Sequence record: NC_052657.1
Source: Escherichia phage muut
Direction: 5' to 3' (one strand)
Length of the DNA: 64,000 nucleotides
This document shows, one piece after another, positions 3,204-19,889 of this stretch (positions within the stretch are counted from its first letter, which is position 1; the number at the start of each line of letters is the position of its first letter). Both the position numbers and the translations under genes were made by a program. The notes beneath the pieces were generated by a model that was not told the origin of the DNA, searched no databases, and saw only the letters and a program-made list of their open reading frames with translations.

Positions 3204-3401
3204 ATGATGCTAGATCAACTGATCAATGCTCCTCGCGTAACAGTAAGTCCAAAAACATTTGCATCACTTTTAGAAGATGCTAGAGAGGTTTATAACTTTA
3301 CTGAAGAAGAGCTTCCTGTTCCTGTTAAAAAAGGTTCCAGATGGTTGTTTTATGAAGGTATTATTTTTACTGAAGGGAATAATTGGAAGGAGACTAAATG
3401 A
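3204..3401 (+). CDS. hypothetical protein (65 aa)
   Basis: ATG preceded by AAGGAGG; ORF-track 3111 start overlaps previous gene. Confidence 0.5.
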   Translation: MMLDQLINAPRVTVSPKTFASLLEDAREVYNFTEEELPVPVKKGSRWLFYEGIIFTEGNNWKETK

Positions 3402-4387
3402 AATACTTAGTAACAGGTGGTTTAGGCTTTATTGGAAGTGCGGTAGTTCGTTTCCTGGCTAAAAACACTAAGAATGATATTTACGTTATAGATAAATGGG
3501 GTTACGCTTCAGACCCTAGAAATTTATCAGAAACACCTAATGTAAAGTTTTGTCGTGTTGACTTGACAAATGCTCAGTTAACTGCTAAGATTGTGGCAGA
3601 TGTTAATCCAGATTATATAATGCATCTTGCAGCAGAAAGTCACGTAGATAATTCAATAGCATCACCGAGTGTTTTTATAAATTCAAATATTGTTGGAACA
3701 TTTAATCTTCTAGAAGCTGTTCGTTTAATGGGAGATAAATCAAATCTTAAAATGTTTCATCATATTTCAACAGATGAAGTGTATGGTGATCTGGAAGAAG
3801 GGGATTATCCGTTTACAGAACAGAATCCTTATAAGCCAAGTAGTCCATATGCTGCATCTAAGGCAGCAAGCGATCATTTGGTAAGAGCGTGGCATCGTAC
3901 TTATGGTATTCCGACAGTTATAACAAATTGTTCAAATAATTTTGGAGCGTATCATCATCCAGAAAAACTAATACCTAAAACGATAACAAATATTTTGATG
4001 CATAAACCAATCCCTGTTTATGGCAATGGTCTTCAAGTAAGAGATTGGTTATACGTTGACGATCACGCAGAAGCATTACACCTAGTAGTAACTAAAGGCA
4101 AATCTGGAGAAACATATAATATTGGGAGCAGAAACCCTAGAACTAATATTGATGTAATCTATATGATTTGTGATTATATGGATGCGGTGTATCCATCTGA
4201 AACAGATGCTTGTAGCCTCATTGAGATGGTTACAGATAGGCCTGGGCATGATTTAAGATATGAAGTGAATCCTTATAAGATTGAAAAGGAATTAGGGTGG
4301 AAAGCTAAAGGCACATTTGAAGAAAAACTTTATTCAACCATTGATTGGTATGTAGATAACAAAGAGTGGTGGGAAAATAAAGTTTAA
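3398..4387 (+). CDS. rmlB: dTDP-glucose 4,6-dehydratase
   Basis: 329 aa; N-terminal GGLGFIGS Rossmann motif, YAASK catalytic YxxxK. Confidence 0.9.
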
Positions 4388-4395
4388 GGAGGAGT

Positions 4396-5265
4396 ATGAA
4401 AGGTATTATCTTAGCAGGTGGTAGTGGAACAAGACTTTACCCAGTTACTAAAGGGGTTAGTAAACAACTATTACCAATTTACGATAAACCTATGATTTAT
4501 TATCCACTCTCTGTCCTAATGCTTTCTGGAATTAGGGAAATACTAATAATTACGACACCAGAAGATCAAATTAATTTTGTAAATCTTCTAGGTGATGGTT
4601 CTTCTTTTGGTATTTCCCTACAGTATGCAATACAGGACAACCCAAAAGGTTTAGCAGAAGCGTTTATTATTGGTGAGAGCTTTATTGGTGAAGATTCTGT
4701 AGCACTTGTTCTAGGTGATAATTTGTTCTTTGGTCAGAGTTTTGGTAGCATTTTAGATTCTGCTAAAGAACATATTGAAAAGAATGGTGGAGCTAATATT
4801 TTTGGGTATCACGTAAATGATCCTGAAAGATTTGGTGTTGTTGAGTTTGATTCTGAAGGTACAGTGGTAAGTATTGAAGAAAAACCAAAAGCACCAAAAA
4901 GCAATTATGCAATTACAGGCTTGTACTTTTACGATAATTCTGTTATACAGAAAGCTAAAAGCGTTAAACCTTCTGCTAGAGGGGAATTAGAGATCACAGA
5001 TATAAATGAGATGTACTGGAAAGAAAAGACTTTACGTGTCTGTAAACTAGGAAGAGGTTTCACTTGGCTGGATACAGGAACACATGAAAGTCTTATGGAA
5101 GCATCTCAATTTGTTCATGCAATAGAAAAGCAACAAGGTATGAAGGTTGCATGCCTGGAAGAGATTGCTTTTAAAAATGAATGGATTACTTTAGACTCTG
5201 TAAAAAGTTCTGGAGAGGTTTTAAGTAAAACAGACTACGGTAAGTATTTACTTAAATTAAAATAA
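4396..5265 (+). CDS. rmlA: glucose-1-phosphate thymidylyltransferase
   Basis: 289 aa; N-terminal [14 protein letters not shown] nucleotidyltransferase signature. Confidence 0.9.
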
Positions 5266-5277
5266 AGGGGGAATTAA

Positions 5278-5832
5278 ATGATTCAAGCAACAAAAATCGA
5301 AGATTTGTTGATCATTCAACCTGACGTTTACGGAGATGAACGTGGTTTTTTCTTAGAAAGTTTTAATCAGGCTTTATATGATCAATACATAGGTAAACAA
5401 AACTTTGTCCAAGATAACCATTCACGTTCTATTCGAGGAGTTCTACGTGGGCTTCATTTTCAAAAGAAAAACCCACAAGGGAAGTTAGTACGTTGTGTTC
5501 GTGGTGAAGTTTATGATGTTGCTGTAGATATTAGGGTTGATAGTCCAACATTTGGAGAATGGGTAGGTGTTCTCTTATCTGAAAAGAATAAAACACAATT
5601 TTGGATTCCTCCTGGTTTCGCTCATGGCTTTGTTGTGATTAGTGACATTGCTGATTTTGAATATAAATGTACAGAATATTACGATCCGACTTCAGAGTGT
5701 AGTCTTGCGTGGAATGATCCAGATATCAATATTGATTGGGGTTTTGATTTAATCTTTAATGATATTAATTTTAAACCTATCTTGTCACAAAAAGATCAGG
5801 AAGCCAAAACACTAAAGGAGATCATATTTTGA
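5278..5832 (+). CDS. rmlC: dTDP-4-dehydrorhamnose 3,5-epimerase
   Basis: 184 aa cupin-type; RGLHFQ and DERGFFLE segments typical of RmlC. Confidence 0.85.
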   Translation: MIQATKIEDLLIIQPDVYGDERGFFLESFNQALYDQYIGKQNFVQDNHSRSIRGVLRGLHFQKKNPQGKLVRCVRGEVYDVAVDIRVDSPTFGEWVGVLLSEKNKTQFWIPPGFAHGFVVISDIADFEYKCTEYYDPTSECSLAWNDPDINIDWGFDLIFNDINFKPILSQKDQEAKTLKEIIF

Positions 5833-6659
5833 CAAAATTTTTAATCTTTGGTTCAAAAGGTCAATTAGGACAATCTTTGGCAAAAGTTGCACCAGAAGAT
5901 GTTATTTTGATTGAAGCAAGTGATATAGACATTACCAACTTTAAAGATGTTATGAATAGTCTTGTACAGCACGTGCCTGATGTTGTTGTGAATTGTGCGG
6001 CTTACACGGCAGTAGATAAAGCTGAAGAAGATGTTAACACCTGTATAAATGTTAATGCATACGGTGCAACAAACATTGCCAAAGCATGTAATGATTTACT
6101 GATACAGTTTGTACATATTTCAACAGACTATGTTTTTGATGGGCATGTTGCTGGCACAGAAGATAGTAAAACAAACCCCTTGAACACCTACGGTTACAGT
6201 AAACAATTAGGTGAAACTTTAGTACAAACAGTTTGTCCTACAGCACTTATTATCAGAACAGCTTCTGTTTATAGTGAATTTGGACATAACTTTTTGAAAA
6301 CTATGTTGGAACGCTACAACGGTGGTCAAAAAGAATTTAATGTAGTATGTGATCATTTATCATGTCCTACTTATGCACCTGATCTTGCAGAAACAATTTT
6401 TAAACTTGTAAAAGATGGTGTAAATAGTAAAATTGTACACTATGCAGGTGCAGATTATATTTCTTGGTATGATTTTGCACGAAAGATATTTCTTGTTATA
6501 GATTTATCTGTTACAGTTAATCCTGTATCTGCTTCAACCTATAATTCCAAAGCAGTCAGACCAGCAACATCTTATTTAAAAACAGATCCTACTTTAAATC
6601 CGCGAAGTGTTGATAGCGGTATTGTAAGAACTTTAACTATACTTTTAAACAAGGAGTGA
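5829..6659 (+). CDS. rmlD: dTDP-4-dehydrorhamnose reductase
   Basis: 276 aa; N-terminal FGSKGQLGQ Rossmann motif; last gene of rml operon order. Confidence 0.8.
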   Translation: MTKFLIFGSKGQLGQSLAKVAPEDVILIEASDIDITNFKDVMNSLVQHVPDVVVNCAAYTAVDKAEEDVNTCINVNAYGATNIAKACNDLLIQFVHISTDYVFDGHVAGTEDSKTNPLNTYGYSKQLGETLVQTVCPTALIIRTASVYSEFGHNFLKTMLERYNGGQKEFNVVCDHLSCPTYAPDLAETIFKLVKDGVNSKIVHYAGADYISWYDFARKIFLVIDLSVTVNPVSASTYNSKAVRPATSYLKTDPTLNPRSVDSGIVRTLTILLNKE

Positions 6660-11027: not shown

Positions 11028-11690
11028 ATGAAGTTTGTACTGTATCATCGACTTTCTAAGAAGAAACAACAAGGCAACCAGTATGGTATAGAATCACAGG
11101 AAGCAGATATCCAACGCTTCCTGGATTCACAAGAAAATTATACTATTGTAGGTAGCTTTGCAGAGTTTTATTCTGGTAAAGGCGATTGGAAGCAACGTAG
11201 AGAGCTTGTAAAAGCTGTTAATCTTTGCAAAGAAACAGGTGCTACACTTGTTGTTGCTAAGGTTGACCGTCTTGGACGTAACACAGCTTCTGTTGCAACC
11301 TTGTTAGAGATGATTAATGTACGGATAGCCACTATGCCCTCCGCTGAAAATATGATAATAAATATTTTAGCAGTTCTGGCAGAAGAAGAGGCTCGTGCAA
11401 TATCTGATCGTGTTAAGAAGAGCCTTAAGGTAGCAAAAGCGAAGGGAACGCTTCTTGGTGCAGCAAACCCTAAATACAAAAGAACAGATTATACGAAAAC
11501 GGAAGAAGCAAAACGCTCAAAAGAGTTTGCACTTTCTTTAAAAGATTCTTTAGTTGCATACAGAGCTTGTAAAACGCCATATATGACGATTGCAAAGCAT
11601 CTGAATGAATCAGGAAAGAGAACTATTCGTGGGAGTTTGTTCGATGCCAAAGCGGTACAACGTCTTTGTGCAAAATTGAATATTAAATAA
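11028..11690 (+). CDS. serine recombinase (resolvase/invertase family)
   Basis: 220 aa; YHRLSKKKQ (catalytic Ser), SGKG...R, VVAKVDRLGRN motifs. Confidence 0.7.
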   Translation: MKFVLYHRLSKKKQQGNQYGIESQEADIQRFLDSQENYTIVGSFAEFYSGKGDWKQRRELVKAVNLCKETGATLVVAKVDRLGRNTASVATLLEMINVRIATMPSAENMIINILAVLAEEEARAISDRVKKSLKVAKAKGTLLGAANPKYKRTDYTKTEEAKRSKEFALSLKDSLVAYRACKTPYMTIAKHLNESGKRTIRGSLFDAKAVQRLCAKLNIK

Positions 11691-15733: not shown

Positions 15734-16723
15734 ATGAAAGTTTTAAGTCTTTTTGATGGTATGTCAGGAGGAATGCTTGCGCTAAAAAGTGCAGGTATTG
15801 AAGTAGATACATATTACGCTTCAGAATTAGACAAATTTGCCGTAGCTGAAAGCCAAGCAAATTTTCCAGATATTATTCAGTTAGGTGATGTTACAAAATG
15901 GAGAGAATGGGATATCCCGTGGGGAGAAATTGATCTTTTGTTAGGTGGTAGTCCGTGTCAAGGCTTCTCTTCTTCTGGTAAGGGTTTGAACTTTCAAGAT
16001 CCGCGATCTAAGTTATTCTTCGAATATGTTGAAATTCTTGAACATATTAAAAAGTTTAATCCTAATGTTAAGTTCATGCTTGAAAACGTTAAGATGAAAG
16101 TGGAGTGGGAAAACGTGATCACAAGTTACTTAGGTGTTGATCCCGTATTCATTAACTCCGCAGATTTCACGGCACAGAATAGACAACGTTTATACTGGTG
16201 CAACTGGGAAATAAAACCCTGGGAGATTACCAATGAAGTGTTGCAAGATATCATTGAAGATGATAGTATTGTAGACAGAGATAAGGCTTATTGCATAGAT
16301 GCAAATTATGCCAAAGGTGGTAATATAGAACAGTATTTTGAAAAGAGTCGCAGACAACTGGTTTTTTATCCGGCAGCAATATATGGGCGTAGAATTAATG
16401 AAAATGGCAAACGTAGTACATCTAAAACTGATCGTTTGGTACATTGTTTGGAAGTTCAGGACAGTGAAAAAACTCGTTGCCTCACGACTGTGCCTAAAGA
16501 CGTACTATTAGCCTACATTCCACCTGGAAGATATCTAGATGCTTTTGAAAAATTGAGTGAAGGCGTACATTATAGAAAGTTAACGGTTAAAGAGTGTTGC
16601 CGCTTGCAAGGTGTGCCAGATGATTACTTTAAAGTGAGTAGTAACACACAAGCATATAAGATGTTAGGTAACGGTTGGACTATACCTGTCATTGCACATA
16701 TTCTTAAATGTATGGAGGAATAG
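15734..16723 (+). CDS. dcm: DNA cytosine-5 methyltransferase
   Basis: LFDGMSGG (motif I), GSPCQGFS (motif IV PCQ), ENV (motif VI), GNGWTIPV (motif X). Confidence 0.85.
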   Translation: MKVLSLFDGMSGGMLALKSAGIEVDTYYASELDKFAVAESQANFPDIIQLGDVTKWREWDIPWGEIDLLLGGSPCQGFSSSGKGLNFQDPRSKLFFEYVEILEHIKKFNPNVKFMLENVKMKVEWENVITSYLGVDPVFINSADFTAQNRQRLYWCNWEIKPWEITNEVLQDIIEDDSIVDRDKAYCIDANYAKGGNIEQYFEKSRRQLVFYPAAIYGRRINENGKRSTSKTDRLVHCLEVQDSEKTRCLTTVPKDVLLAYIPPGRYLDAFEKLSEGVHYRKLTVKECCRLQGVPDDYFKVSSNTQAYKMLGNGWTIPVIAHILKCMEE

Positions 16724-16846: not shown

Positions 16847-17458
16847 ATGACTCAAAAAGTTGCATATCAAGTAGATCGTGAAGACGGTGAAGGTAGTGTT
16901 GTAGTTTTTGATACACATGGTCTTGCAGCAAGACGCAAAGGTGCTTGTCTACTGGACATTGGTGGTGAAGATGAATACTGCACTGTACGTAGAGTAAAAG
17001 AATTTGATCAATATGCTGAAAAAGGTTTTGTACCTGCAAAAGCACTATTAGAAGCTGGATGGTGGATACCTAGTGCACATGATTATGATATTTTGGAATC
17101 AGATACAGACGATTTTAACAGTGAAGATTTTGTTTTTTCTCTGGATGAAAAATGCGTTTGGAAAGATTGGGATGAAATGGAACGCCATGCTTATTTTATA
17201 AACGAAGCATTAGATCGTAAAACTTGGTTTGAGAATACAGTTAAAGCAGCGTATCCTCAATTTACTTTTACAGAATTTTGGGGTGGCCCACACCATATTA
17301 CTCATGTGGCATACTTCGAGTTCCCAGGCTCACGCTATAAAGGTACTGTCTATTGGGATTGGGACGAGGACAAAGAACCTTCTGCTCAAGACTTCCGTTG
17401 CTATGTTTGTCAAGGTGATCAAGAAGCCCTTGACAAGTACCTTAAAAGTCTGGTATAA
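16847..17458 (+). CDS. hypothetical protein (203 aa)
   Basis: ORF only. Confidence 0.5.
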   Translation: MTQKVAYQVDREDGEGSVVVFDTHGLAARRKGACLLDIGGEDEYCTVRRVKEFDQYAEKGFVPAKALLEAGWWIPSAHDYDILESDTDDFNSEDFVFSLDEKCVWKDWDEMERHAYFINEALDRKTWFENTVKAAYPQFTFTEFWGGPHHITHVAYFEFPGSRYKGTVYWDWDEDKEPSAQDFRCYVCQGDQEALDKYLKSLV

Positions 17459-17475
17459 TCCGTAAAACTTAACCA

Positions 17476-17499
17476 AAGCCCCAAGCAGGGGCTTTATTT
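17476..17499 (+). terminator. rho-independent terminator
   Basis: AAGCCCC-AAGCA-GGGGCTT then TATTTG. Confidence 0.6.
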
Positions 17500-17512: not shown

Positions 17513-18046
17513 ATGGGTTTTGATGACATGTTATTATATGAGGAGGCTTGTGTGAAAGAAGCTATGGCTTTACCAGTTTTATCTATTGATATTACAACAG
17601 TAGACACTTTTTCAGATTGTGAAACGTGTGGATCGTATTCGTCTATTGTACATGAAGTTAGTGGGGATTTAGGCACTTACGAAGATGGAGATTATGCAAG
17701 TTGTTTAGGTGATAATCGAGATGGTGAAGTGGCGAATGTTGCAAACTGGATTGCTTCTAAGTTAAAAGAAAGAAATCGTCCGTTCCCTAATCTTCTTACA
17801 CCAGAAGCTATGCTTAAAGCTGAACAAGAGATGTATGATTATGGTTATAAAGTAGATTATGACTATAATGATCCTAAATATAAAAAATTGAGTGACAAGT
17901 ATTGGGAACTAGCTAATGCTTATGATAAATACTACTCTACAGAAAACATTGTTAAATTGTTTTTAGATTTTGGAGTAGAAATTAATTGGGATTTCGAAGA
18001 GGAAGAGCGTTACGACGCATCTTCTTGGGAGGACGAGGGTGAATGA
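17513..18046 (+). CDS. hypothetical acidic protein (177 aa)
   Basis: ATG with GGAGGA RBS 15 nt inside ORF-track ORF. Confidence 0.5.
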   Translation: MGFDDMLLYEEACVKEAMALPVLSIDITTVDTFSDCETCGSYSSIVHEVSGDLGTYEDGDYASCLGDNRDGEVANVANWIASKLKERNRPFPNLLTPEAMLKAEQEMYDYGYKVDYDYNDPKYKKLSDKYWELANAYDKYYSTENIVKLFLDFGVEINWDFEEEERYDASSWEDEGE

Positions 18047-18783
18047 TAGAACGAAAACCCTTACCAGATAGAGATTACTTGTTATCAAGGTTTAGTGTGG
18101 AGAATGGTCGTCTTGTTTGGAAACCTAAACCTTCTACAACAAAAGAGAACAAAAGGTGGAATAGCAGATACGCAGGGAAGATTGCAGGGACTATTGATAA
18201 AGCTGGTTACTCTCATGTCAAAATAGATGGTATTGTATACTTGGAGCACAGAGTTTGTTTTAAAATGTATCATAATTACTGTCCAGATGTTATAGACCAT
18301 GATGACGGCAATAAACTTAATAATGCGGAAAGTAATTTATTGGATAGTAACTATTTATTAAATAATAACAATAGACACGTGGATGGGTTAGAAGGTATTT
18401 ATGAAAAGGATGGTGTTTTTCTTTGGGTTATAAACTACAACCAAGAAACTTTCTCTGTTTCAGGTTTCAAAACTAAAGAGGAAGCTATTGTAGCTAGAGC
18501 TTTAGCAAAACAAGAAATTTTGAAAGGATCTTATATCAAAAAAGAAAAGAAGCGTATAGATAACACTTCAGGATTAAGCTGTGTGTTTGTGGCAACAAGA
18601 GAGAGAACATTCTTTTTCAAGTTTGTGTTTGACAAGATCACGTATTGCAAATATGGTTTCAACGATCCAGAGAGATGTGCTATAGCTCTGGAGAAACTAA
18701 GATTGAAGGTGATGAAAGAAAAATATAAACCTGCAAATAAAAGCATTTGCGAAAAATATAAGGAGGAGATTTATGCCGCGTAG
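18043..18783 (+). CDS. HNH homing endonuclease with AP2-type DNA-binding domains
   Basis: GY..V.IDG..YLEHRV...IDHDDGNKLNN HNH_3 pattern; two AP2-like repeats. Confidence 0.55.
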   Translation: MIERKPLPDRDYLLSRFSVENGRLVWKPKPSTTKENKRWNSRYAGKIAGTIDKAGYSHVKIDGIVYLEHRVCFKMYHNYCPDVIDHDDGNKLNNAESNLLDSNYLLNNNNRHVDGLEGIYEKDGVFLWVINYNQETFSVSGFKTKEEAIVARALAKQEILKGSYIKKEKKRIDNTSGLSCVFVATRERTFFFKFVFDKITYCKYGFNDPERCAIALEKLRLKVMKEKYKPANKSICEKYKEEIYAA

Positions 18784-19588
18784 AGTCATATTCATAACTG
18801 GTGCAGGACTATCTGTGGATAGCGGTATCCCAGCTTTTAGAACAGATACTTCTTCAGGGAAGGCGTTATGGTCTTCTTATGATCTTTTTGAGGTCTGTGA
18901 CATTTTCAACTTCCGTGACGGTTATCAGCAAGAACAAGGTGTTCTTGATGCTATGGGTGGTTTAGATGCAGAAGGATATAACCTCTACCGTAAAACTCAC
19001 GACTTTTACAATAAACGTCGCGTGGAATTAGAGAAAGTTGACCCGAATCCAGCACATCTTCAGATTGGAGAATGGTTCAAAAAATATGGCCCAGAACGAA
19101 TTATTAACATTACTACTAACGTGGATGACCTCCTTGAACGAGCAGGAGTAGATAGGGAAGAAGTGCTACATGTGCACGGTTTTCTTCCTGAAATTACTTT
19201 TCAAAGAAAAGCTGGACAACCTACAATTGTAAAAGATGTTGGTTATCAAGCCATAGATGTAGATGACTACCATTATGTAAAACCTAATGTAATTTTCTTT
19301 GGGGAAGCTGCTCCACTTTACACGGATATGTATCATATTTTTGATACTTTGACCATGCAAGATTTGGTTGTTGTAGTAGGATGTTCAAACCAAGTTATCA
19401 ATTTTAATTGGGAATTATTCCCTGCACTTAATATGGGTACAAAAATGATCGTTGTTAACCCAGGAATTAATTACGAAGAAACTCTTCTTTACGAAGACAG
19501 AGGAGTTTTTGTTTATCGAGAAAAGGCCGCAGATGCTTTTAGCAATCCTGCTTTCATAAAAATGATAGAAGATCATTTGACTAAGTAA
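18773..19588 (+). CDS. Sir2-family NAD-dependent deacylase/ADP-ribosyltransferase-like protein
   Basis: ITGAGLSVDSGIPAFR, ITTNVDDLLERAG, VVVGCS motifs. Confidence 0.75.
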   Translation: MPRRVIFITGAGLSVDSGIPAFRTDTSSGKALWSSYDLFEVCDIFNFRDGYQQEQGVLDAMGGLDAEGYNLYRKTHDFYNKRRVELEKVDPNPAHLQIGEWFKKYGPERIINITTNVDDLLERAGVDREEVLHVHGFLPEITFQRKAGQPTIVKDVGYQAIDVDDYHYVKPNVIFFGEAAPLYTDMYHIFDTLTMQDLVVVVGCSNQVINFNWELFPALNMGTKMIVVNPGINYEETLLYEDRGVFVYREKAADAFSNPAFIKMIEDHLTK

Positions 19589-19595
19589 CTTGACC

Positions 19596-19616
19596 AAGGG
19601 GCGAAAGCCCCTTTTC
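19596..19616 (+). terminator. rho-independent terminator
   Basis: GGGGC-GAAA-GCCCC then TTTT (same hairpin as after lysozyme). Confidence 0.6.
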
Positions 19617-19631
19617 TTATAGGAGAATATT

Positions 19632-19889
19632 ATGACCACAGAACAAATCGTTAAAGACCATTTTATGATGCACTACGTTTATTACTTCAATAATAATCAA
19701 CAGAAAGGTGAGGGATTTTGTTATCTATCCGCACAACAAGGTTTTGGTATCCGTCAAGCAGATATTAACGGAGCAGTGGCTGGAATTACAAAAGGCTTGG
19801 TTGCAAACCTTAAAGATAATGTTGTTGTTGTCCCAACGTGCATCTCTTATCTCTCAACCTGCCCTGAAGAAGATTTTATGCATTCCTAA
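19632..19889 (+). CDS. hypothetical protein (85 aa)
   Basis: GGAG RBS. Confidence 0.5.
   Translation: MTTEQIVKDHFMMHYVYYFNNNQQKGEGFCYLSAQQGFGIRQADINGAVAGITKGLVANLKDNVVVVPTCISYLSTCPEEDFMHS

Follow-up and report, generated by a model that had tools for sequence, protein, structure and literature searches.

Escherichia phage muut carries a gene for a sirtuin, Sir2, in the 64,000-nucleotide stretch of its genome that we analysed (record NC_052657.1; this whole stretch is called the window here, and positions count from its first letter). We find that Sir2 is one of a large phage clade of small, zinc-free sirtuins of the CobB/SIRT5 type (class III), and that its gene is a chimera: an HNH endonuclease gene directly upstream and the first ~570 nucleotides of the sirtuin gene have moved jointly between the genera Phapecoctavirus and Justusliebigvirus, by co-conversion. 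As to function, sequence and structural modelling lead us to predict, tentatively, that Sir2 is a protein-lysine deacylase that depends on nicotinamide adenine dinucleotide (NAD+) and works without zinc. The gene itself has been annotated before, as part of a family widespread in phages, and does not represent a new kind of system.

A zinc-free phage sirtuin

The gene and its putative ribosome-binding site are placed as follows:

18773..19588, plus strand: sirtuin gene, 271 amino acids (open reading frame with SIR2 and PHROG profile matches)
18760..18766, plus strand: Shine-Dalgarno sequence AAGGAGG of the sirtuin gene, read from the sequence, inside the 3' end of the HNH gene and 6 nucleotides before the ATG

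The 271-residue product is matched by Pfam SIR2 (PF02146) at 73.3 bits (cutoff 24; E=3e-20) over 178 of 180 model positions, and by PHROG 2162, "Sir2 (NAD-dependent deacetylase)", with E=1.2e-98. Residues 10-23 are GAGLSVDSGIPAFR, an NAD-binding motif of the GAGxSxxxGIPxFR type, and residues 114-125 are TTNVDDLLERAG. A first-pass annotation of the window had called a phage Sir2-family protein at this locus from these two stretches, and the open reading frame, both profiles and both motifs bear that call out. The window is 98% identical across the region to Escherichia phage BME3 and ~96-98% identical to phi92, EmilieFrey and other members of Justusliebigvirus (Stephanstirmvirinae); Sir2 is the orthologue of phi92 gp038, and orthologues in phi92-like records carry the labels Sir2, sirtuin or NAD-dependent deacetylase. 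Relatives of Sir2 were detected by tblastn in 971 of 50,697 phage records (~2%), including those of T5-like (T5 itself among them), rV5-like and phi92-like phages; by host genus, Escherichia accounts for 371, Salmonella for 289, Klebsiella for 131 and Vibrio for 50. The KVP40 and T5 genomes already put phage Sir2/CobB genes on record, and for the copy of a Vibrio phage an in-silico study has described loss of the zinc ligands (PMC5107563).

The catalytic motifs of Sir2 are intact. In an alignment to CobB of E. coli MG1655, H135-G136 fall at the catalytic H147 of CobB, Y79 and R82 fall at Y92 and R95, and the NAD-ribose ligands N116 and D118 are kept; residues 114-120 read TTNVDDL, with T replacing the Q of TQNIDxL and the motif kept. 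Thus, of the features that the first-pass annotation had singled out for an alignment, the catalytic histidine is present and the zinc-binding cysteines are absent, a loss common to the whole clade, which is itself under purifying selection. The Y-x-x-R pocket for acidic acyl groups that is typical of CobB and SIRT5 is present as Y79-x-x-R82. In SIRT5, succinyl- or malonyl-lysine is bound through its carboxylate by Y102 and R105, in a pocket that A86 keeps open; the position of A86 is taken in Sir2 by C42, which is near-invariant in the clade. The 120 closest homologues all have FYxxRR, and 116-117 of them have TTNVD and the GAG motif. An alignment of 25 family members, the most distant of them 52% identical to the window protein, has 67 invariant columns. 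In the N-terminal part of the protein these include G10-A11-G12, S14, S17-G18, F22-R23, F78-Y79, R82-R83, N92 and H95, and in the remainder T114-T115-N116-V117-D118, H135-G136, K170-P171-N172-V173, F175-F176, E178, G203, S205 and N229-P230.

C42 and C204 are the only cysteines of Sir2, and the zinc module of the 120 closest homologues holds 0-1 cysteines. In an exhaustive search of 1.84 billion representatives (clustered at 50% identity), the top ~25 proteins lacked zinc ligands; from about rank 27 many relatives had CxxC...CxxC, and their module, again 36-47 residues long, is marked by IGY and KPNVV as in Sir2. Since the top ~25 share the loss and many farther relatives keep the ligands, we conclude that absence of the zinc site is a derived trait of the clade, not decay of the window copy.

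An AlphaFold2 model of Sir2, built from the family alignment, has a mean predicted local distance difference test score (pLDDT) of 87.3 and a predicted template modelling (TM) score of 0.86, and AlphaFold and Foldseek together predict the sirtuin fold of a Rossmann domain plus a small domain. Residues 121-170, which include the zinc-less module, are modelled as a three-strand sheet at pLDDT 93-95, and low confidence is limited to the cofactor loop (21-30) and a divergent substrate loop (201-220). Foldseek against the PDB placed E. coli CobB first (1s5p, E=1e-15, TM 0.84), followed by Sir2Af1, SIRT5 (3riy), Sir2Af2, Sir2Tm and SIRT2. The best PDB matches by sequence are the deacylases Sir2Af2, CobB and SIRT5, and the NCBIfam matches are solely to "NAD-dependent protein deacylase" models. 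Hence, of the activities that the first-pass annotation had listed, a deacylase fits best, the nearest relatives by both sequence and fold being CobB, Sir2Af1/Af2 and SIRT5. Between close relatives the ratio of nonsynonymous to synonymous substitution rates (dN/dS) of the gene is 0.05-0.16. Moreover, the N-terminal 190 residues occur in two allele types that are only 60% identical, with saturated synonymous sites, and both keep every catalytic motif. These values and the retention of the motifs in both alleles indicate that selection acts to preserve the gene.

Family membership, conserved residues, predicted fold, purifying selection and clade-wide loss of the zinc site are thus established directly for Sir2; from here on we infer enzymatic activity, substrate class and expression timing. 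Sir2 would bind NAD+ through the GAGxS...GIPxFR and TTNVD motifs and use His135 as catalytic base, and the Y79-x-x-R82 pocket, together with the small C42, would take an acyl-lysine, possibly an acidic one (succinyl or malonyl). In this way it would strip acyl marks off host or phage proteins during infection and set nicotinamide free, which could be recycled by a phage nicotinamide phosphoribosyltransferase (NAMPT) that is encoded elsewhere in the genome of at least one relative.

Several observations weigh against this prediction. The Cys4 zinc site (two CxxC pairs) on which canonical sirtuins depend for stability was looked for in Sir2, and no cysteine lies between H135 and K170. The loop that follows the GxS motif in CobB, GTSGHVYPAAGF (GTSGHVYP), pairs with the substrate peptide; Sir2 has GCSNQVINFNWELFP in its place, which is clade-specific and near-invariant. 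Because GCSNQVINFNWELFP replaces the peptide loop, with a pLDDT there of 66-67, the substrate may be something other than a peptide. The NCBIfam scores are far below their cutoffs (NF001753, 95.9 versus 243 bits; NF040867 CobB, 80.7 versus 320 bits), the host already owns a CobB, and RNA-repair genes adjoin Sir2 in two other phage lineages. Finally, a literature search for an experimentally characterised phage sirtuin returned none, just annotation, in-silico modelling (PMC5107563) and a comparative-genomics proposal (PMC9503650). Taking both sides together, protein deacylation, probably with tolerance of acidic acyl groups, is the best-supported mechanism among the readings we weighed, at slightly less than an even chance of being correct.

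RNA repair and other candidate functions

The comparative-genomics proposal, by Iyer, Burroughs, Anantharaman and Aravind (2022), is that most phage sirtuins form one clade with a KptA/Tpt1-like role in RNA repair; its basis is gene neighbourhoods in rV5/Mydo-like phages, SP15 (T5-like) and jumbo phages (PMC9503650). Applied to the window, Sir2 would move ADP-ribose from NAD+ onto the 2'-phosphate of a repaired tRNA or other RNA, as KptA/Tpt1 does, acting beside a phage RNA ligase, a kinase and a cyclic-phosphate-processing cREC or HAD enzyme. We consider this unlikely, for the reasons given below. The zinc-free clade may not be protein deacylases at all but the first sirtuins to act on nucleic acid, a functional analogue of Tpt1/KptA that would ADP-ribosylate the 2'-phosphate of repaired tRNA and remove it, with the Y-x-x-R pocket as anion site and the NQVINFNWELFP loop facing a non-peptide substrate, and this too we regard as improbable rather than far-fetched.

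We surveyed gene neighbourhoods at 59 IMG/VR loci, in which open reading frames were called and clustered and representatives were scanned. In rV5/Mydo-like phages the gene order is metallophosphoesterase, RNA_lig_T4_1, cREC_REC, AAA_33 kinase, a small open reading frame, Sir2, ATP-dependent DNA ligase and MazG, as the RNA-repair proposal would have it. T5-like loci also speak for it, since in 28 of them Sir2 is directly followed by HAD_SAK_2 (the "Swiss Army Knife RNA repair" HAD); ribonucleotide reductase, PhoH and helicase-primase genes flank the T5-like locus. A third point is that the phi92-like phage Antha has a cluster of phosphoesterase, RNA ligase, ATPase, DNA ligase and MazG genes. 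With respect to the protein, the invariant Y79/R82 pocket, which binds anions in SIRT5 and CobB, could hold a phosphate, and the divergent substrate loop is compatible with a substrate that is not a peptide.

The context in the window lineage is different. Sir2 is flanked there just by lineage-specific genes without known function (c39, c58 and c59, described below), and BLAST with all open reading frames of the 64-kb window found no homologue of the RNA ligase, cREC, kinase, MazG, NADAR or HAD. No tRNA genes were found within the window. The cluster of Antha does not contain Sir2 and lies about 30-35 kb upstream of it. Co-occurrence across phages is loose: the Rnl1-type ligase, present in 698 records and common in Pseudomonas, Streptomyces and Vibrio phages, was found in 14 Salmonella and 36 Klebsiella records, and cREC in 16 and 39, as against 289 and 131 for Sir2, and 175 Pseudomonas phage records have the ligase, whereas Pseudomonas is outside the ten commonest genera for Sir2. 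Phages outside the rV5/phi92 group lack the cREC subfamily, and the link between cREC and Sir2 is therefore inseparable from shared ancestry. Sir2 is also strongly acidic (isoelectric point (pI) 4.9, net charge -14; clade medians 4.9 and ~-13.5), in which the uniformly acidic clade resembles the CobB catalytic core (pI 5.4) and is unlike a typical RNA-binding enzyme, its closest characterised relatives all act on proteins, and the proposal was built on gene context alone. Thus, the idea of an RNA 2'-phosphate substrate is weakened by unlinked genes here, an acidic protein and loose co-occurrence; it stays a live rival, albeit one to which we give clearly less credence than to a deacylase.

The Antha cluster has features of its own. 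It spans 110291-121208 and comprises phosphoesterase, Rnl1-like RNA ligase, ATPase/kinase, ATP-dependent DNA ligase and MazG genes, together with a 106-residue "hol-like chemotaxis protein" that is possibly a cREC. Right beside it is an NAD salvage module of NAMPT and phosphoribosyl pyrophosphate (PRPP) synthetase.

A role in conflict with the host was also weighed, namely that Sir2 is a protein ADP-ribosyltransferase or a hydrolase of NAD or an NAD derivative, used for host takeover or for blunting defence based on NAD or ADP-ribose signals. Sirtuins of other clades catalyse ADP-ribosyl transfer and NADase reactions (PMC9503650), NAMPT and PRPP synthetase in a phi92-like relative imply that NAD turnover matters to these phages, and a consensus host-type promoter upstream of the gene string that includes Sir2 suggests early expression. 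However, PADLOC models, those for defence Sir2 included, gave no match at E<=0.01 to Sir2 or four neighbours; no macrodomain, SLOG, HerA, TIR or pAgo partner was found among the neighbours tested; and the top 50 Foldseek matches are all deacylase-type sirtuins, with no defence Sir2. We therefore rejected a defence-type Sir2, and the link to NAD-based defence that the first-pass annotation had raised found no backing. The aligned catalytic histidine and the acyl-pocket residues Y79 and R82 are kept together, as is typical of deacylases, and wholesale consumption of NAD+ would oppose the NAD salvage genes of the phage itself. In our view a conflict enzyme is quite improbable.

The idea that Sir2 is a decayed, inactive remnant that lost its structural zinc site starts from its lack of CxxC pairs and from the reliance of canonical sirtuins on zinc for stability, and we rejected it as very improbable, since zinc loss is common to 120 of 120 close homologues and the top ~25 representatives with module length kept, the dN/dS indicates purifying selection, all NAD and catalytic motifs are among the 67 invariant columns, and the zinc module is confidently modelled.

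The clade has a wider bearing. It is represented in T5-like, rV5-like and phi92-like phages that serve as model systems and are candidates for therapy. Conflict between phage and bacterium centres to a large extent on NAD+, and here a phage enzyme predicted to spend NAD+ is found in a group in which at least one member has NAD salvage genes. For Sir2, the questions are narrowed to acidic acyl-lysine versus 2'-phosphate RNA as substrate, activity without zinc, and the divergent substrate loop.

Probable homing and the chimeric gene

The endonuclease gene, the block that it shares with the sirtuin gene and the candidate target lie as follows:

18043..18783, plus strand: free-standing HNH (HNH_3-type) putative homing endonuclease gene, 246 amino acids, PHROG 99, a sporadic insertion between c58 and the sirtuin gene
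18030..19345, plus strand: horizontally transferred block (co-conversion tract) of ~1.3 kb, comprising the HNH gene and Sir2 codons 1 to ~190, from the identity profile
18781..18877, plus strand: candidate homing-site/immunity region, codons for GAGLSxDSGIxxFRTDTxSG, with 22 allele-distinguishing positions

The HNH gene overlaps the start of the sirtuin gene by 11 nucleotides, and its ATG overlaps the stop of c58 (ATGA). The first-pass annotation had described the neighbour as an HNH-AP2 endonuclease. The HNH part of that description is supported at the family level by PHROG 99, "HNH endonuclease" (E=3e-34), and D85-H86, N93-N94 and N98 are invariant among homologues; a point against it is that the window copy scores 22.2 bits with Pfam HNH_3, just under the cutoff of 24.8, where the homologues P0271 and P0272 reach ~31. 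The AP2 part is unconfirmed: Pfam gave no AP2 match to the whole protein or its fragments even at E<=10, and the sole AP2-like Foldseek match (7et4, E=1.3, probability 0.54) is non-significant. A fragment of the protein has a weak Arm-DNA-bind_4 match (E=0.017), and a poor AlphaFold model (5 sequences, pLDDT 58) contains a three-strand-plus-helix unit at residues 118-161. Among 5.8 billion sequences, homologues form just four protein clusters.

The HNH gene is present in 7 of the 50,697 records (6 phages, two genera); the copies are 98-99% identical, and each lies between c58 and Sir2. The carriers are BME3, KKP_3264 and KKE7M in Justusliebigvirus and nepoznato and DIJ07P2 in Phapecoctavirus, to which ECML-183-2 apparently belongs by its match pattern; phi92, EmilieFrey, PD114 and others are without it. 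Three HNH-free genomes, those of phi92, EmilieFrey and JohannJBalmer, are 97-100% identical to the window up to 18036 and again from ~19350, and fall to 55-72% over the Sir2 segment 18817-19350. The reverse holds for nepoznato, which has the HNH gene: identity is 95-100% over 18037-19350, with flanks at 45-75%. At the protein level, residues 1-190 of Sir2 are 96% identical to nepoznato and 60% to phi92, whereas residues 191-271 (81 codons) are 100% identical to phi92 and 74% to nepoznato. Since the sliding identity profile is a clean mosaic, we conclude that the window Sir2 is a chimera of an HNH-linked allele (residues 1-190) and a phi92-type allele (residues 191-271).

The extent of the linked segment varies among genomes. 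Only 9 records (8 phages) have the first ~190 codons of the HNH-linked allele at >=95% identity. DIJ07P2 has the HNH gene followed by just ~143 nucleotides of the linked allele and then an allele of the nieznany type; the tract within Sir2 is ~570 nucleotides in the window and a few tens of bases longer in BME3, for a range of ~143 to ~590 nucleotides. In PD114, cardinal and UAB_1, the Sir2 segment is converted from ~18800 without an HNH gene. Variable tract ends and one-sided conversions fit double-strand-break repair around a homing site. The minimal linked segment common to all HNH-carrying genomes runs from 18773 to about 18915, and 18781-18877 holds 22 positions at which every HNH-linked allele differs from every unconverted HNH-free allele in both genera; examples are the Ser14 codon (TCT versus AGY), A15V, R/Q20P-T21A and D27S. 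From this pattern we infer that HNH-free alleles are recognised by the endonuclease at the sequence for the conserved NAD-binding motif, whereas the linked allele would be immune. A free-standing HNH homing endonuclease would thus take the sirtuin gene as its landing site, and homing would have brought the HNH gene and ~570 nucleotides of a foreign, presumably cleavage-resistant Sir2 allele into the window genome, yielding the chimeric sirtuin.

The HNH gene is found at one spot and the block is 95-100% identical across genera whose flanks are 45-75% identical; hence, the sirtuin gene appears to be resident and looks like the homing site rather than cargo. The neighbouring endonuclease would then be a parasite of the sirtuin gene, not a functional partner. 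The first-pass annotation had suggested a mobile cassette, which holds for the HNH gene and the 5' ~570 nucleotides of Sir2, whose shared history is distinct from that of the flanks; extending it to the whole sirtuin gene as cargo brought into the phage is scarcely credible, and we rejected that reading because Sir2 has the same locus and the same neighbours in >100 related HNH-free genomes, just its 5' part was exchanged while the 81 codons at the 3' end match phi92 perfectly, and tract lengths of ~143 to ~590 nucleotides are those of repair tracts, not of a fixed cassette.

The HNH-linked allele has a composition of its own. Positions 18916-19100 are 93% identical to the allele of the Phapecoctavirus nieznany, and 19101-19345 (plus strand, 245 nucleotides) are just 69% identical to nieznany and 65% to phi92. 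Because identity drops in this last segment, the linked allele is itself a mosaic, one piece of which is close to neither of the two. Separately, genes for HNH proteins of 160-175 residues, in one BLAST cluster with the window HNH, occur in the T5-like loci L013-L046 (e.g. L026, L027, L037 and L040), where they are scattered about the nrd genes and Sir2 at positions that vary, and in L026 the NrdD gene is apparently split (440 + 215 residues). The scattered HNH genes and the split NrdD suggest frequent endonuclease traffic at these loci.

Gene neighbours and relation to known systems

Around the sirtuin and HNH genes we annotated the following:

16847-17458, plus strand: c39, upstream of c58, product very acidic (pI 4.6, net charge -19)
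17430..17459, plus strand: sigma-70 consensus promoter-like site, TTGACA-18-TATAAT with extended -10 TG, 12/12 consensus matches
17513..18046, plus strand: c58, upstream neighbour, 177-182 amino acids, PHROG 9509 (unknown function)
19596..19613, plus strand: terminator-like GC-rich hairpin and T-run directly 3' of the Sir2 stop (-15.1 kcal/mol, z=-3.2)
19632..19889, plus strand: c59, downstream neighbour, 85 amino acids, PHROG 15991, beside Sir2 in this phage lineage only

The promoter-like site is at the end of c39, and a GC-rich hairpin (17475-17495) follows it, ahead of the start of c58. An early transcription unit with the HNH gene and Sir2 among its genes may begin at this point, and the promoter- and terminator-like pattern matches suggest that Sir2 is probably expressed early. 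Searches of Pfam, PHROG, NCBIfam, PADLOC and PDB sequences returned nothing usable for c39, c58 or c59. The c58 product has a pI of 4.1 and a net charge of -26, with 4 clusters in 5.8 billion proteins, confined to this phage group; the charge of c39 and c58 recalls that of DNA-mimic or inhibitor proteins. Relatives of c58 are labelled "putative aminoacyl-tRNA synthetase", a name without support, the match to PhetRS_B1 being E=0.023 at best.

Elsewhere in the window, four consecutive genes at 3398-6659 (plus strand) resemble a dTDP-rhamnose pathway, an unusual sugar-nucleotide pathway for a lytic phage; in EmilieFrey they are labelled dTDP-glucose 4,6-dehydratase, glucose-1-phosphate thymidylyltransferase, 3,5-epimerase and dTDP-4-dehydrorhamnose reductase. 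A serine recombinase/resolvase is encoded at 11028-11690 (plus strand; Pfam Resolvase, E=8e-22) in what is apparently a virulent myophage, and relatives label the gene DNA invertase or site-specific recombinase. At 15734-16723 (plus strand) is a gene for a Dcm-like C5 cytosine methyltransferase (Pfam, E=2e-43). Upstream of c39, at a comparable position, the Phapecoctavirus relatives carry another "Dcm" gene, which is shorter (227 residues), so the modification gene seems to have been swapped between genera. Finally, about two dozen "Campylobacter phage" records (A150, B15, C15 and others; host Campylobacter jejuni) are ~95% identical in this region to E. coli phages of the phi92/rV5-like group, and their host labels therefore look doubtful.

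Among characterised sirtuins, CobB and SIRT5 share with the window Sir2 the motifs GAGxS..GI(P/R)xFR and T(Q/T)N(I/V)D, the catalytic histidine in HG, the FGE loop and the Y-x-x-R pocket. They differ in having the Cys4 zinc site, which Sir2 lacks, and the peptide loop GTSGHVYPAAGF of CobB is GCSNQVINFNWELFP in Sir2; Sir2 also has an extra 20-25 residues in the helical small domain, at about residues 48-71, and its identity to CobB is 29% in a multiple alignment and 24% in a structural one. The phage copies, i.e. phi92 gp038, the "Sir2-like (cobB)" protein of T5 and PHROG 2162, have the same length, motifs and loss of zinc cysteines. Protein identity to Sir2 is 98.5% for the "NAD-dependent histone deacetylase" of BME3, 60-100% for phi92 gp038 depending on the segment, and about 50-57% for T5-like and rV5-like copies. 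Unlike the phi92 and T5 copies, the window Sir2 is chimeric and has an endonuclease gene directly upstream. The clade of Iyer et al. (rV5, Mydo, SP15 and Serratia BF types) is the same protein clade and the same PHROG, with 50-60% identity over the full length to copies of rV5-, Mydo- and T5-like phages, whereas its RNA-repair neighbourhood (RNA ligase, cREC, kinase, MazG or HAD_SAK) is absent beside the window Sir2. Defence SIR2 NADases (ThsA, DSR1/2, SIR2-HerA and SIR2-pAgo) share the superfamily fold and NAD binding; Sir2 is unlike them in being a standalone protein of 271 residues, with no sensor or partner domain by Pfam and no PADLOC match. SirTM, an ADP-ribosylating sirtuin, has an adjacent macrodomain gene, and no Macro domain was found in the scanned neighbours of Sir2 or in annotated relatives.

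For the endonuclease, the closest parallels are Seg and Mob, the free-standing homing endonucleases of T4-like phages, and the HNH_3 endonucleases of T5-like phages. Like the window HNH gene, these are intergenic, promoter-less and wedged between conserved genes, they are sporadic in otherwise collinear genomes, and an adjacent conserved gene is co-converted with them. The window HNH differs from these in that its family is very small and its putative target gene is a sirtuin.

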